Shown here piece by piece: positions 6,663 to 11,889 of a stretch of 64,000 bases of DNA. Source of the DNA: Gemmatimonadales bacterium (GTDB lineage Bacteria > Gemmatimonadota > Gemmatimonadetes > Gemmatimonadales > GWC2-71-9). The translations under genes were made by a program, and so were the position numbers. Position 1 is the first letter of the stretch, and every line of letters begins with the position of its first letter. The notes below the pieces were generated by a model, which worked only from the letters and a program-made list of their open reading frames with translations, ran no database searches and was not told the DNA's origin. The stretch spans positions 10,635 through 74,634 of the forward strand of contig JBBDYB010000017.1 of the NCBI GenBank assembly GCA_040901965.1. The letters run 5' to 3'.

Positions 6663-7871
6663 ATGCCGGAGCCGGCGGTTTTCGGACAGCACGAATCCAA
6701 CACCCTCGCGCAACTCCGCGACGTGGCGAGCCGCGCGGCCCGCGCCGCGCTCATGGCCGACGGGCACTTGGGCTACGTCATGCCGATCGGCGGCGTGGCG
6801 GCCTATCGCGACCAGGTGTCGGTCGTGGGCGTGGGATTCGACATCGCCTGCGGTAACGCCGCGATCCGCACCGACCTCACTCGGCCGCAGATCGAGAATC
6901 GGCTCGGGGAGATCGCGGACGAGATTCAGGCGTCGCTCTCGTTCGGTGTGGGCCGGAAGAACCGCGCCGACGACGCGCCGGTGGACGATCCGTTGTTCGA
7001 GGATCCGGCGTGGGAAGCCGTCCCCGACCGCCACGAGCGCGACCGGCTGCGCGTCAAAGCGCGCGAGCAGCTGGGGACCGTCGGCAGCGGTAATCACTAC
7101 GTCGACGTCTTCGCCGATGAAGAGGAACGCGTCTGGGTCGGCGTCCACTTCGGCTCGCGTGGGTTCGGATTCGGCGTGGCGCACGGGTTCCTGGCCTTGA
7201 GTCAGAACCGGGCGTGGGGCGAGCGGGTGCCAGAGCGCGAGACGCTGCTCGACGTGCGCGCTCCGGTGGGCGACGCCTATTGGCAGCTCATGAATCTGGC
7301 CGGCCGCTACGCCTACGCGGGACGCGAGTGGGTGGCGCGCAAGGTCGTGTCCATCCTCGGCGGCCGCGAGATCGAGCTGGTGCACAACCACCACAACTTC
7401 GCGTGGGTGGAAGAGCACGGCGGCGAGCGCTTCTACGTCGTGCGCAAGGGCGCGACCCCGGCGTTCCCGGGCCAGAAGGGCTTCGTCGGCGGCTCGATGG
7501 GCGATGACGCGGTGATCATCCAGGGCGCGACCGCGGCCGATCCCGCCGTCCGTGAGCTACAGGCGCGCGCGCTTTACTCCACCGTGCACGGCGCGGGCCG
7601 TGTGATGAGCCGTACCGCCGCGGCGGGCAAGCGCACGCGCAAGGGCAAGGTGCTCAAGCCGGGCGCAATCTCGCGCGAGATGATGCACGACTGGGTGAAG
7701 CAGAAGGGTGTGCTGCTGCGGGGCGGCGGCACGGATGAAAGTCCGCACGTCTATCGCCGGCTGCCGGACGTGCTCAAGGCTCAGGGCGCGACGGTGGACG
7801 TCCTGCACACGCTGCGGCCGTTGGTCGTCGTGATGGCCGGTGCGGACGAGTTTGATCCGTACAAGGATTAA
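6663..7871 (+). CDS. rtcB: RtcB family RNA ligase
   Basis: DIACG, GTVGSGNHY, VHFGSRG, HNHHN, VRKGAT, STVHGAGR, DESP motifs. Confidence 0.95.
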   Translation: MPEPAVFGQHESNTLAQLRDVASRAARAALMADGHLGYVMPIGGVAAYRDQVSVVGVGFDIACGNAAIRTDLTRPQIENRLGEIADEIQASLSFGVGRKNRADDAPVDDPLFEDPAWEAVPDRHERDRLRVKAREQLGTVGSGNHYVDVFADEEERVWVGVHFGSRGFGFGVAHGFLALSQNRAWGERVPERETLLDVRAPVGDAYWQLMNLAGRYAYAGREWVARKVVSILGGREIELVHNHHNFAWVEEHGGERFYVVRKGATPAFPGQKGFVGGSMGDDAVIIQGATAADPAVRELQARALYSTVHGAGRVMSRTAAAGKRTRKGKVLKPGAISREMMHDWVKQKGVLLRGGGTDESPHVYRRLPDVLKAQGATVDVLHTLRPLVVVMAGADEFDPYKD

Positions 7872-7962
7872 GAGGCGTGACACGGCGTAGAACTGCGTGA
7901 AAATGCGTACCCGCCTTTTTGTTTCACCCCTCCTAAATCGCCTTCCTGGGTTAGGGTTAGGA

Positions 7963-8930
7963 ATGCCTGCTGGATCACTGGTAGCGTCGCTGCGTGCTGC
8001 CCTACGGTTGCGGCATTACAGCATGCGCACCGAGGAGTCGTACGTCGGTTGGGTGCGGCGGTTCGTCAAAAGCTCAGGCATGCGTCATCCGCGCGAGCTC
8101 GGCCCGGGCGATGTGAGCCGGTTTCTCTCTCACCTCGCGGTCGAAGCGAAGGTCAGCTCGTCCACGCAGAATCAGGCGCTGTCGGCGCTCGTCTTCCTCT
8201 ACAAGGAAGTGCTGGACGTGCCCGTGGGGTGGCTCTCGGCGCTGGTGCGTGCGAAGCGGCCCCTTCGAGTGCCCGTCGTGTTCACGAGAGACGAAGTACG
8301 CCGTGTGTTGGCGCGATTGCGGGGTCGTGGCACGCTGGCGTTGGTCGCGGGGCTATTGTACGGGACGGGCATGCGGCTGCTCGAGGGGCTGCGCCTGCGC
8401 GTCAAGGATATCGATTTTGGCAAGAATGAGATTGTCGTGCGTGGGGGCAAGGGCGATCGCGACCGGATGACCATGTTGCCGGAGCGCCTCAAAGGGCCAT
8501 TACTCGAGCACATCGCCGAAGTTCGCATGCAGCATGAGCGCGACGTTGCCGAGGGTGCGGGTTGGGTAGAGCTGCCCGGTGCGCTCGATGCCAAGTATGC
8601 GAATGCGGGCCGAGAGTGGGGGTGGCAGTGGGTTTTTCCGCGACGCGCATGTACGAGGATCCCCAGACCGGCCAGCGCCGGCGCCATCATCTGCACGAGA
8701 CCACGGTGCAACGCGCCTTCAAGGAAGCGGTGCGAGCCACGGGCATTGCGAAGCCCGGCAGCTGCCATACGTTGCGCCATTCCTTCGCGACACACCTGCT
8801 CGAGGCGGGCTACGATATTCGGACGGTCCAGGAGCTGTTGGGCCACCGCAGCTTGAATACCACGATGATATACACGCACGTGCTCAATCGTGGTGGCCGA
8901 GGAGTGCAGAGCCCAGCGGATACGCTCTGA
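7963..8930 (+). pseudogene. intI: Integron integrase with a 1-nt frameshift near 8640
   Basis: HYSMRTEESY, STQNQALSALVFLY, GMRLLE, GKGDRDR, integron-specific insert [52 protein letters not shown], split over two frames. Confidence 0.93.
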
Positions 8931-8998
8931 TATTGCGTTTAGGCTGACCAGCCCATTTCGTTGAGTGGTGCCGGAGAGTCCCAGATAGGGAGGCAAGC

Positions 8999-9043
8999 AT
9001 GAAACACCAAACGTTTAAGACAGTTCAGTCCAATTATCGTTAG
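8999..9043 (+). CDS. 14-aa attI leader peptide MKHQTFKTVQSNYR (ORF-11-like)
   Basis: SD AGGGAGG 8987-93, ATG 8999, stop TAG lies in the G/TTAG crossover. Confidence 0.55.
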   Translation: MKHQTFKTVQSNYR

Positions 9044-9045
9044 AC
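9010..9045 (+). other. Putative attI site, crossover G9039/T9040
   Basis: GTTAGAC core; GTTAGACCGCGC is the exact reverse complement of GCGCGGTCTAAC at the end of cassette 1; no attC hairpin upstream. Confidence 0.75.
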
Positions 9046-9062
9046 CGCGCAACTTCCCTCTC

Positions 9063-9091
9063 TTGTGGTGTACATACATAGTATGTACATT
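9063..9091 (+). promoter_or_regulatory. TA cassette promoter with overlapping operator
   Basis: TTGTGG-17 bp-TACATT; perfect IR TGTACATAC-ata-GTATGTACA at 9069-9089. Confidence 0.7.
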
Positions 9092-9096
9092 GATCC

Positions 9097-9393
9097 GTGG
9101 CCGAGCTCCGTTTCGAATGGGATCCAACCAAGGACCAGGCCAATCGGCGGAAGCATAAGGTCTCATTTCAGGAGGCCGAGAGCGTCTTCGCCGATGAACA
9201 CGCGCGCTTATTGGACGATCCTGAGCACTCTGAGGATGAGGAGCGGTTCATACTCCTGGGCCTCAGCTCACGGTTCCGCGTTCTCGTGGTGGTACACACC
9301 CACAGAGGGGACGAGGACGTGATACGGATCATTTCGGCGCGGAGAGCCTCGAAGGCGGAGCGCACCTACTACGATGCGAGGTGGCAACGATGA
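9097..9393 (+). CDS. brnT: BrnT family toxin (ribonuclease)
   Basis: FEWDxxKxxxNxxKHxVSF..A..VF, HSxxEER, IRIISARRA. Confidence 0.92.
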   Translation: MAELRFEWDPTKDQANRRKHKVSFQEAESVFADEHARLLDDPEHSEDEERFILLGLSSRFRVLVVVHTHRGDEDVIRIISARRASKAERTYYDARWQR

Positions 9394-9653
9394 GACGCGA
9401 ATACGATTTCTCCAAGTCCCGGCCGAACCCCTATGCCGAGCGACTGAAGGAGTCTGTGACGATCCGGCTGGACACGCGGGCTTTGAAATACTTCAAGGAG
9501 CTATCAGCGACCAGCGGGATTCCTTACCAGACCCTGATTAATCTTTACCTCCGTGATTGCGCGGCGACGGGGCGCAAATTGGATCTTCAATGGAAAGCGC
9601 CGAAGCGTGCGCGGTCTAACAAGCGCTTGAAGCTGGCGGCGCGCGTAGATTAA
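9390..9653 (+). CDS. brnA: BrnA-type antitoxin (RHH/CopG-like)
   Basis: MRREYDFS..NPY, VTIRLD, YFK, GIPYQTLINLYL; ATGA overlap with the toxin. Confidence 0.88.
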   Translation: MRREYDFSKSRPNPYAERLKESVTIRLDTRALKYFKELSATSGIPYQTLINLYLRDCAATGRKLDLQWKAPKRARSNKRLKLAARVD

Positions 9654-9703
9654 GGAATGAGTCTTTTGTCAGCGCGCCGCAGCTTAAGCGCGATCCGTTA
9701 GGC
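9614..9703 (+). other. attC site 1 (90 bp)
   Basis: GTCTAAC...GTTAGGC; arms cgctt[g]aagctg[g]cggcgcgc / gcgcgccgcagcttaagcg with two extrahelical bases. Confidence 0.93.
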
Positions 9704-9723
9704 GGCTACGCGGCGAATAGACC

Positions 9724-9909
9724 ATGGCCACTAAGCATGTGATTCTCTTCAGCGTCGTCACACTCGTCGTCGCTTGCGCTCACGGCCCGATCAGCACCGG
9801 TCACCTCCTGCGTCCCGGCCCCGCCCTTATCCTCGATGGTGCAGTGCTCTCATGTCATGTCGGGAGCACCGCTCCGGGGCCCGTGGGCCAACGGGATCGC
9901 CGCAGCTGA
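9724..9909 (+). pseudogene. Truncated lipoprotein at the start of cassette 2
   Basis: Signal peptide with lipobox VVAC, then the frame degenerates. Confidence 0.5.
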
Positions 9910-10333
9910 TCTCGACCGGAGCGAGGTAACGGCCAACGACCTGGACGGCGCGGCGTTCTTCGGGCTGCGCATGGCCTCAGGCGCCGTGTTCCGGCCGGTC
10001 TCGATGACGGGCAACAGCCTTCGCAACAACCGGATCACCCGCTCCGCCAGCGCCGGCATGTTCGTGCACTCGGCGTGCGCCAACACGTTCGCTGGCGACA
10101 ACCTGACCAGGAACGTGTCGAACGTGGGCGCGATCTTCGACGAGGCAACCGGCGCGAACACGTTCCTAGGCAACCAAACGGTCGTGATCGACAACGGCGA
10201 CTTCGACTGCGACGGCGACGGCGTCGTGGACCCGAACGGGATCACTGGGCCGGGCCTTGTCCGGCGCGGCGTGGCACTCGGGCCACCGGAAGCCAGCGCC
10301 GTCGGCGCGGCGAACGGCAAGGCGCTCAGATAG
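9852..10333 (+). pseudogene. C-terminal fragment of a right-handed beta-helix protein
   Basis: Asn-ladder repeats (GNSLRNNRI, ANTFAGD, ANTFLGN) and DCDGDG motif; no clear N-terminus. Confidence 0.55.
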
Positions 10334-10564
10334 AGAGGGAACCTGGGCCAGGCCGGCTCTGCGTCGCCGCCCGGCCCAGTGCCTGCGCCATAGCCTTTTC
10401 AACTCCTCGATCTCATGGAGCTTCGGGAGCAGCGCGCGCGGTCGGGGGGAGCAGGTCGACCACGACCTCCTTGAATTGAATCTGGCAGAATCGGATCTCT
10501 TGCTGGGCTCAGCGCCAGGTCTGGCCAGATCGGGGTACCAACGGCGATCGGAACCTTTCGCGCT

Positions 10565-10694
10565 ACCTAACGAGCGAATGGACCTGACGGCGCGGCAGCC
10601 TCCTCAACGTGGTATGTTAGTCCATGTGGCGCGCGACGGGGGACATGGATAGCCCCGGTGGCCGCGCCGCAGATCATTCGCGAATCCGTTAGGC
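10565..10694 (+). other. attC site 2 (130 bp)
   Basis: ACCTAAC...GTTAGGC; arms cgaatg[g]acctg[a]cggcgcggc / gccgcgccgcagatcattcg. Confidence 0.9.
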
Positions 10695-10698
10695 AGCC

Positions 10699-11109
10699 AT
10701 GACTACTGGATGGGCATGTCCAAAGTGCAAGCGCCGGTTTACACGAAAGAACCAGCGCCACGCTTGCGGTACAGGGGACCGCGCCGAGGTTCTCCGGAAT
10801 AGGCCACCTGAAATTGTCGAGCTCTTTGCCGCTTTGGAAACGTTCGCCAAGGCGCTCGGGCCAGTGGAATTCGTGACGCGCGAACGATATGTATTGCTTC
10901 GAAGCAAGCGCATTTTTGCCGACTTAGTCATCATGTCCGACGCCCTGCGACTCGCAATCCACCTATCGAGGAAGGTGGAGAACAAACTATTCATGAAGAT
11001 CGGCTCAAATCGGAGACAAGTGACACATGTCGCCAAGCTGCGGAGTATGGAAGATCTCGAAATCATGAAACCGTTCTTGCGCGAAGCTTATGAATACTCG
11101 ATCGCATAG
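10699..11109 (+). CDS. DUF5655-like protein with N-terminal zinc ribbon (cassette 3)
   Basis: WACPKCKRRF..NQRHAC; ATG 10 nt after the crossover; lower GC. Confidence 0.75.
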   Translation: MTTGWACPKCKRRFTRKNQRHACGTGDRAEVLRNRPPEIVELFAALETFAKALGPVEFVTRERYVLLRSKRIFADLVIMSDALRLAIHLSRKVENKLFMKIGSNRRQVTHVAKLRSMEDLEIMKPFLREAYEYSIA

Positions 11110-11118
11110 AGAGCGGGC

Positions 11119-11889
11119 CTAGGGCCTCTTCTTCACTTCTTCCCACAGCTTGTCCAGCGCGTCCAAACTTGCCCTGCCCATTTCCAATCCGCGCTCCTCA
11201 GCCAGCTTCTCGACTTGCTCGAAGCGTCGCTGGAACTTGGCGTTGGCGCGCTCCAACGCCTGATTGGGCTCGATGCCGAGCTTGCGGGCGAGATTGACGG
11301 CCGCGAACAGCAGGTCGCCGATCTCCTCTTCGACCCGCTCCCTGCGTCCCGCTCCCTGTTCCTTTTCGAGCTCCGCCGTTTCTTCTTTTACTTTGTCCAT
11401 CGGCCCCTTCGCATCGGGCCAGTCGAACCCGATACCGGCGGCGCGCTCCTGGAGCCGATAGGCCATGAGCAATGGGGGAAGCGTGGGCGGCAATCCCGCG
11501 AGCGTACCCCGCTTGCCGCCGGTGCGCGGCTCGCGTCGCTTCGCGAGCTCCCAGCCCGCGTGGTCGCTCAGGCTCACGCGCCCGTCGCCGAACAGATGGG
11601 GGTGCCGGCGCCACATCTTTTCCTCGAGCGTCCGCGTGATCACTTCGGCGTTGAACTGCGAGCGCTCCTCGCCGATCACGATTTGAAACGCGAGATGCAG
11701 GAGCAGATCGCCCAGCTCGTCGCGCATCGCTTCGGGGTCATCGGTCTGGATGGCTTGGTCGAGCTCGAGTGCCTCCTCGACCAGGTAGGGGCGGAGCGTT
11801 TGCGGATTCTGCGCGCGGTCCCAGGGACACCGCAGCCGTAGATCGCGCACGAGTCCGAGAGCACGTCCAAGCGCTGAATCGCCTTGCAT
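11119..11889 (-). CDS. mazG: Nucleoside triphosphate pyrophosphohydrolase MazG
   Basis: CPWD..Q, EE..E, ELGDLL, GFDW, EEIGDLLF tandem domains. Confidence 0.95.
   Translation of the reverse strand: MQGDSALGRALGLVRDLRLRCPWDRAQNPQTLRPYLVEEALELDQAIQTDDPEAMRDELGDLLLHLAFQIVIGEERSQFNAEVITRTLEEKMWRRHPHLFGDGRVSLSDHAGWELAKRREPRTGGKRGTLAGLPPTLPPLLMAYRLQERAAGIGFDWPDAKGPMDKVKEETAELEKEQGAGRRERVEEEIGDLLFAAVNLARKLGIEPNQALERANAKFQRRFEQVEKLAEERGLEMGRASLDALDKLWEEVKKRP

Follow-up and report, generated by a model that had tools for sequence, protein, structure and literature searches.

A leader-like reading frame ending at the cassette-borne stop in the attI site of a Gemmatimonadales integron

The integron and its cassettes

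The stretch of 64,000 nucleotides analyzed here, referred to as the window and used for all positions below, contains a small integron in the chromosome of a soil bacterium of the Gemmatimonadales type; the integrase gene intI and the cassettes are all on the + strand. The orientation of intI is therefore that of the cassettes, and the "inverted" integron type proposed in an earlier sequence-only reading of this DNA was borne out. The intI gene (7963 to 8930, + strand) matches the NCBIfam model TIGR02249 in two different frames, with its N-terminal part (residues 2-218) at 272 bits against a cut-off of 265 and its C-terminal part (residues 222-315) at 150 bits; the frame shifts after 8637 in the assembly. 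Alignment with two intact paralogues from the same genome places the missing base at WVFP|ATR, just after 8637, and this one-base frameshift is a feature absent from the earlier reading. We aligned contigs of four public DNA runs (X1, X2, X5 and X8) to positions 7900-10800 and found an extra C after 8637 in the contigs of X2, X5 and X8, which come from three other studies, where it closes the alignment gap. The contig of X1, probably the source sample of the window, repeats the window including the frameshift. The break is thus specific to one population or sample.

The genome (G000; 2.69 Mb in 22 contigs) encodes three integron integrases, each with an attI site downstream. The two loci outside the window, L002 and L001, are located at C17:82876-83811 and C22:57264-58205, respectively; two of the three integrases sit on the contig of the window. 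An integron integrase match at E<=1e-60 was obtained in 258 of 401 sampled genomes of the order, a tally that takes in G000 and three unpublished genomes (G201, G358 and G090), the latter three entering the analysis through this count alone. No terminator-like site was found between intI and attI, a consensus promoter scan returned a single match, ahead of intI, and called none in attI, and an Rfam scan of 7800-11400 at E<=1 gave no match. A look-up of public runs containing this stretch listed none of RNA.

The first cassette (9040 to 9697, + strand) encodes a BrnT/BrnA toxin-antitoxin pair, with brnT at 9097-9393 (PF04365, 8.7e-29) and brnA at 9381-9653 (PF14384, 4.6e-7), followed by attC1 at 9614-9703, of which the last 6 bases belong to cassette 2. 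The second cassette (9698 to 10688, + strand) carries a gene for a beta-helix protein at 9836-10333 (PF13229, 3.7e-5) and attC2 at 10565-10694. Both attC sites are imperfect palindromes of the form RYYYAAC ... GTTRRRY whose bottom strands fold into long imperfect hairpins, at -25.4 kcal/mol (z -3.4) for attC1 and -34.6 kcal/mol (z -3.5) for attC2. The third unit (10689 to 11115, + strand) begins with TTAGGCAGCC and continues with an ATG at 10699 and a DUF5655 gene that extends to 11109 (PF18899, 1.4e-14). No closing attC was found for it, and the region 11060-11180 folds no better than shuffles (z +1.2). Three cassette units had been described earlier; all three do start with TTAG (at 9040, 9698 and 10689), and only two of them are cassettes closed by an attC. 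It was also confirmed that the ATG of the third unit lies 6 nt past its own TAG with no Shine-Dalgarno sequence (SD) ahead of it.

Two observations were made within the cassettes. A perfect palindrome at 9070-9088, GTACATAC-ATA-GTATGTAC, lies 9 nt ahead of the GTG start of brnT and is likely the BrnT/BrnA operator, so that this cassette would own its promoter; the present first cassette probably has a promoter of its own. The gene of cassette 2 looks split, as a 61-codon ORF at 9724-9909, whose start resembles a signal peptide with a lipobox, overlaps the beta-helix ORF in another frame, which could reflect a frameshift or a wrong start.

A short reading frame across the attI crossover

The attI site was located with a position weight model anchored on GTT, covering 16 positions and using a threshold based on shuffles; a version with 22 upstream positions missed other types of attI. 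The consensus of the model over the scanned loci is CnGTCnAATnnnnGTTAGGC. In the window the predicted simple site (9028 to 9045) is composed of GTCCAAT (9028-9034), a spacer and the core GTTAGAC (9039-9045), which lies 108 nt past the intI stop, with the predicted crossover between G9039 and T9040. The sequence thus places a putative attI by intI with a GTTRRRY exchange point, and among the 266 related loci in which the integrase stop is followed by 60 nt or more, 144 gave a call for a homologous box; the 122 loci without a call were left out of all counts. Further upstream, at 9013-9021, lies the integrase-box-like repeat GTTTAAGAC, identical in 9 of 10 sites of the window's lineage (L143 differs), which we take to be bound by the integrase by analogy with the repeats of attI1. 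A palindrome at 8938-8957, with two half sites resembling integrase boxes (GGCTG AC CAGCC), is conserved across the lineage and has a putative function only. Half sites of this kind, TTAGGCTG AC CAGCCTAA, occur directly 3' of the intI stop in the window and in loci L009, L011, L093 and L157, with both arms altered in L011 (TTATGCTG .. CAGCATAA), and the palindrome may represent an additional site for integrase binding, or one resembling attC, in attI regions of this kind.

Between the palindrome and the core, the window contains an SD-like AGGGAGG (8987-8993), a 5-nt spacer (CAAGC) and an ATG (8999-9001) that opens a frame of 14 codons on the + strand (8999 to 9043) with the peptide MKHQTFKTVQSNYR, terminated by the TAG at 9041-9043. 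Sequence and translation both agree with what had been claimed for this arrangement. The TAG occupies positions 3-5 of the core GTTAGAC; if strand exchange takes place between G9039 and T9040, the cassette carries the entire stop codon together with the final base of the CGT codon. We expressed SD strength as the energy of the duplex formed with the 16S tail of this genome, which replaced the longest match to AAGGAGGTGA, and the window segment GATAGGGAGGC (8984 to 8994, + strand), which includes AGGGAGG and was defined in a right-aligned alignment of the lineage, reaches -12.2 kcal/mol. In 5000 shuffles of the 108-nt spacer between intI and attI, with the last 20 nt kept, dinucleotide shuffling produced an in-frame ATG combined with an SD of <= -12 kcal/mol in 0.24% of cases and mononucleotide shuffling in 0.4%, figures that were computed after the fact. 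In the relatives, the place of AGGGAGG is occupied by an integrase-type box, (G/A)ATAGGCAG or ATTAGGC/ATTAGAC, and the SD-like sequence may therefore have appeared incidentally as that box changed.

Contigs from the other samples are informative about the crossover itself. One contig of X2 and one of X8 match the window to exactly position 9043 and continue with unlike sequence, a contig of X5 ends at 9043, and an X2 contig that carries cassette 1 begins at 9038. The break of continuity between samples falls at the predicted crossover, and the match of X2 and X8 up to 9043 means that the alternative first cassettes there also begin with TTAG. The SD-like sequence and the reading frame are unchanged in near-identical strains, with 0 other letters over 8524-9043 in the X5 and X8 pieces. 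Contig cover over cassette 2 is absent or nearly so in X2 and X5, where a joint from 9686 to 10686 was observed with 8 other letters. The summed contig depths of the attC1 type are in the thousands in all four runs, which means that this attC family is very common in the soils and sediments sampled. A decayed integron as the cause of the SD-like sequence was ruled out, as X2, X5 and X8 keep the intI base and at least two of them show other sequence after 9043.

The layout recalls ORF-11 of the class 1 attI1 site. According to the section of a review that deals with this ORF (PMC8876359, reporting Hanau-Berçot et al. 2002), ORF-11 has a GGAG 8 bp before its ATG and overlaps the crossover; the inserted cassette supplies its stop codon, in most cases TAG, from positions 3-5 of GTTRRRY, and the ORF, which lies 2-62 bp upstream of the first cassette, exerts its effect by translational coupling. 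Set against that section, the match in layout claimed by the earlier reading, including the cassette-supplied stop, was substantiated: in both cases a short ORF, whose ATG follows an SD in ORF-11 and an SD-like run in the window, lies in attI on the cassette-sense strand. It extends across the crossover to a stop at core positions 3-5, and the first cassette gene follows after a few to tens of bases. The same section also means that a cassette-supplied stop is not new, so that the novelty would be a second, unrelated attI of the same design. The two differ in length (14 codons in the window and 11 in ORF-11), in the position of the integrase gene, which is upstream on the same strand here and divergent in class 1, and in the SD, which here is confined to this strain lineage, in a host that uses few SDs. 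The likeness to attI1 is claimed for layout and core only, and for none of the boxes GTCCAAT, GTTTAAGAC and ATAGGCAG. Two other attI1 ORFs are described in the same source: ORF-17 ends inside attI1, independently of a cassette stop, and ORF-18 is a run-on form that arises with cassettes devoid of the stop, the leader then extending into the cassette 5' end (PMC8876359). For the latter a parallel exists here, as 27 of 123 related first cassettes have no stop at that place.

To our knowledge, ORF-11 has so far been described for the clinical class 1 integron alone. Our literature search, which covered main texts and few subscription journals, turned up no ORF of this type in other integron classes. 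The group of inverted integron-integrases (Treponema and others) was called paraphyletic by Cury et al. 2016 (PMC4889954), in a passage that is itself silent on attI ORFs; the arrangement studied here occurs in Gemmatimonadota, Rokubacteria, Acidobacteria and other MAGs. We tentatively regard the 14-codon ORF as a translated leader analogous to ORF-11 that would hand ribosomes to the first cassette, a reading that is quite possible although far from secure.

Conservation in the lineage and among related integrons

The earlier rationale, that cassettes without an SD need a device to deliver ribosomes, proved to be weak reasoning for this host. The 16S tail of the genome does carry CCTCC; among 510 long ORFs with an unambiguous ATG, an SD of <= -12 kcal/mol was present at 2.2% of starts versus 0.8% of internal sites, and one of <= -8 kcal/mol at 15.5% versus 12.2% in the control. 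The motif GGAGG-N3-9-ATG is not enriched in the window (13 occurrences versus 14.3±4.4 in shuffles). Almost all genes of this genome start without an SD, so an SD-less cassette is not handicapped here and, by the same reasoning, the lack of an SD in the relatives is scarcely informative on the use of their conserved ATG.

The lineage of the window was defined as ten distinct attI sites (the window itself, L291, L218, L219, L220, L290, L237, L233, L236 and L143), with IntI proteins 76-90% identical to that of the window where identity was computed. The ATG is located exactly 14 codons before the core TAG in all ten. Within columns -66 to -29 of the alignment only 6 of 38 are invariant and three of these are the ATG, while the 4 bases before it and the 9 after it vary. 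The SD is not conserved in the lineage: the other nine sites range from -3.1 to -9.2 kcal/mol, against -12.2 in the window, and -8 kcal/mol is reached at 16% of all positions in these spacers. Conservation in homologous attI sites, on which the earlier proposal had been made to depend, therefore holds for ATG and frame in the lineage and fails for the SD, and it fails also in a close lineage of seven distinct sites (lineage C), which has a TAA eight codons up and no start in the leader frame, and in L239, which likewise has no start in that frame. A coding signature in the variable codons 2-4 was considered and dropped, as a stop-free frame in 10 sequences is expected about 1/3 of the time anyway (an estimate). 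Five relatives (L291, L290, L237, L233 and L236) offered both sufficient cassette sequence and a listed ORF; their first-cassette ORFs begin 8-27 nt past the TAG, and inspection by eye of the bases printed ahead of them revealed no SD. In L143 the first-cassette ORF is led by GTG and begins at 9 nt.

The conserved ATG might be something other than a start codon, namely a signal at the DNA level such as a sequence bound by the integrase or by a host factor, or an element of the cassette promoter. Boxes of the integrase type flank it on both sides, its distance from the core does not vary, and no clear coding pattern follows it (the third base of codon 3 is invariant and the first two vary). A candidate cassette promoter can be picked out by eye, with TTGAGT at 8961-8966, 17 nt and GATAGG, although its -10 part matches the sigma-70 consensus poorly; over window positions 8961-8989 and the lineage relatives, the GATAGG box sits 9-10 nt ahead of the ATG, and the TTGAC-like hexamer 17 nt before the box is semi-conserved (TTGACA in L218). 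The consensus scan, however, called no promoter there, and only three bases are conserved, which spell ATG in the sole frame that is open to the core TAG. In sister lineages, moreover, the ATGs of this frame stand elsewhere: 5 codons before the TAG in L009, L157, L093, L011, L226, L223 and L107, 10 codons in L100 and 16 codons in L215. Since a start codon fits this shift in position better than a fixed DNA motif does, we consider a DNA-level signal improbable.

The other attI sites of the genome differ from one another. In L002, a paralogous attI outside the window, GGGAGGGGTGGGGAG is followed by ATG ACT CAG TCG ATT AAT AGT TAG, an ORF of 7 codons that ends at the TAG of GTTAGGC and has a G-rich SD of -14.5 kcal/mol; an in-frame ATG with an SD of <= -12 kcal/mol was obtained in 2.7-5.3% of 5000 shuffles of this site (post hoc, last 20 nt kept). 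L001, the third attI of the genome, has no start in the leader frame, and its first cassette begins with TTCTAT. In L066/L146, L158, L170, L057 and L210 we observed ORFs with a strong SD and ATG outside the leader frame; they continue past the core into the cassette and might be leaders of the run-on or fusion kind.

For the family as a whole, we compiled 80 loci from species genomes (Gemmatimonadota, Rokubacteria, Acidobacteria and others) and 29 new ones from an order-wide search, together with 100 regions fetched by coordinate and 80 metagenome loci; the alignment for the locus search was built on two intact integrase paralogues. Over 123 unique attI sites, an ATG was present in the open stretch of the leader frame in 52 (41.9±4.0 in shuffles, a value reached by 3 of 300), compared with 28 in the second frame (25.7±3.9, reached by 97 of 300) and 8 in the third (10.6±2.7, reached by 257 of 300). 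Counting only ATGs preceded by an SD of <= -8 kcal/mol gave 16 in the leader frame (8.6±2.4), 8 in the second (4.5±2.0) and 2 in the third (2.0±1.3), and the share of ATGs with such an SD is alike across frames (29% of 69, 27% of 33 and 18% of 11). Because the relatedness of sites inflates these unclustered counts, the variable part was grouped by single-linkage clustering into 90 clusters, over whose representatives an in-frame ATG occurred 37 times versus 31.6±3.7 in shuffles, a value reached by 53 of 500 and not significant. The leader is therefore not a conserved trait of this integron clade, and at most it is lineage-specific and recurrent. The stop itself requires no particular explanation: T-R-R in the core is a stop codon for 3 of 4 purine pairs (TAA, TAG and TGA) and thus comes free with the core consensus, and a stop was found there in 96 of the 123 first cassettes (TAG in 95 and TGA in 1).

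These results bear directly on the view that the ORF is incidental, that is, that the boxes leave the frame open, the core supplies the stop, an ATG and a purine run appeared by drift and translation is irrelevant. The lack of significant enrichment over the 90 clusters agrees with it, as do the unconserved SD with SD-like runs equally common before ATGs in all frames, the lineage C sites and L239 with no start in the leader frame, the SD-poor genome and the ease with which the frame acquires a start (24% of shuffles of the window spacer yield an in-frame ATG). It accounts poorly for an ATG retained without change in 10 of 10 lineage sites although its flanks vary, and for the presence in two of the three attI sites of one genome of ORFs with a strong SD and ATG in the leader frame, each improbable alone. 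We regard an incidental ORF as possible, if somewhat doubtful.

A possible role in translation of the first cassette

If the ORF is a translated leader, attI would be transcribed either by read-through from intI or from a promoter yet to be mapped, and ribosomes would start at the ATG at 8999, helped in this strain by the strong SD. They would then cross the integrase-binding boxes and halt at the TAG brought by every cassette that begins with TTAG, so that terminating ribosomes would find themselves a few to a few tens of bases before the start of the first cassette gene and could restart there. Translation of the leader might also keep that stretch of the mRNA unfolded. In the window the first gene of the present array, brnT, starts 53 nt past the leader TAG, behind the 9070-9088 palindrome. 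Transcription, translation and a gain for the first cassette are what we infer from this arrangement.

Use of the ATG as a start codon is argued for by its invariance in the lineage, by the shifting ATGs of the same frame in sister lineages and by the second leader with SD and ATG in the genome. The unconserved SD, the lineages lacking a start, the non-significant count over the family, the SD-poor host and a first cassette that would be self-sufficient argue that the role is modest, lineage-specific or absent. A lineage-specific analogue of ORF-11 with a putative function is plausible.

A translated leader could alternatively serve a regulatory purpose, such as attenuation, sensing through ribosome stalling or protection of the mRNA, instead of handing over ribosomes. 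The section of the review on ORF-11 ties it to aminoglycoside-inducible attenuation (PMC8876359), and in the predicted RNA fold the SD pairs with CUUCCCUC at the 5' end of cassette 1 (8987-8993 with 9053-9060). This fold is no better than those of shuffles (z -0.26), however, its pairing partner is specific to the cassette, and the peptide sequence is dictated by the DNA-binding boxes, which together make a regulatory role highly improbable.

Returning to ribosome hand-over, leaders that end at the core stop have lengths of 14, 16, 10, 7 and 5 codons in different lineages, with two examples among the attI sites of this genome. It is conceivable, but in our judgment rather unlikely, that such ORFs arose repeatedly and independently in environmental chromosomal integrons and provide a general hand-over of ribosomes, also in SD-poor phyla.

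The question concerns how promoterless cassettes with very short 5' ends are translated across the vast environmental pool of integrons. If the ORF is incidental, the result would mean that a core-site consensus with a stop in one frame readily yields ORF-11 look-alikes. A conserved, cassette-terminated leader in this distant lineage, if true, would suggest a role of attI in translation beyond class 1 integrons and would be a concrete and testable element of it.
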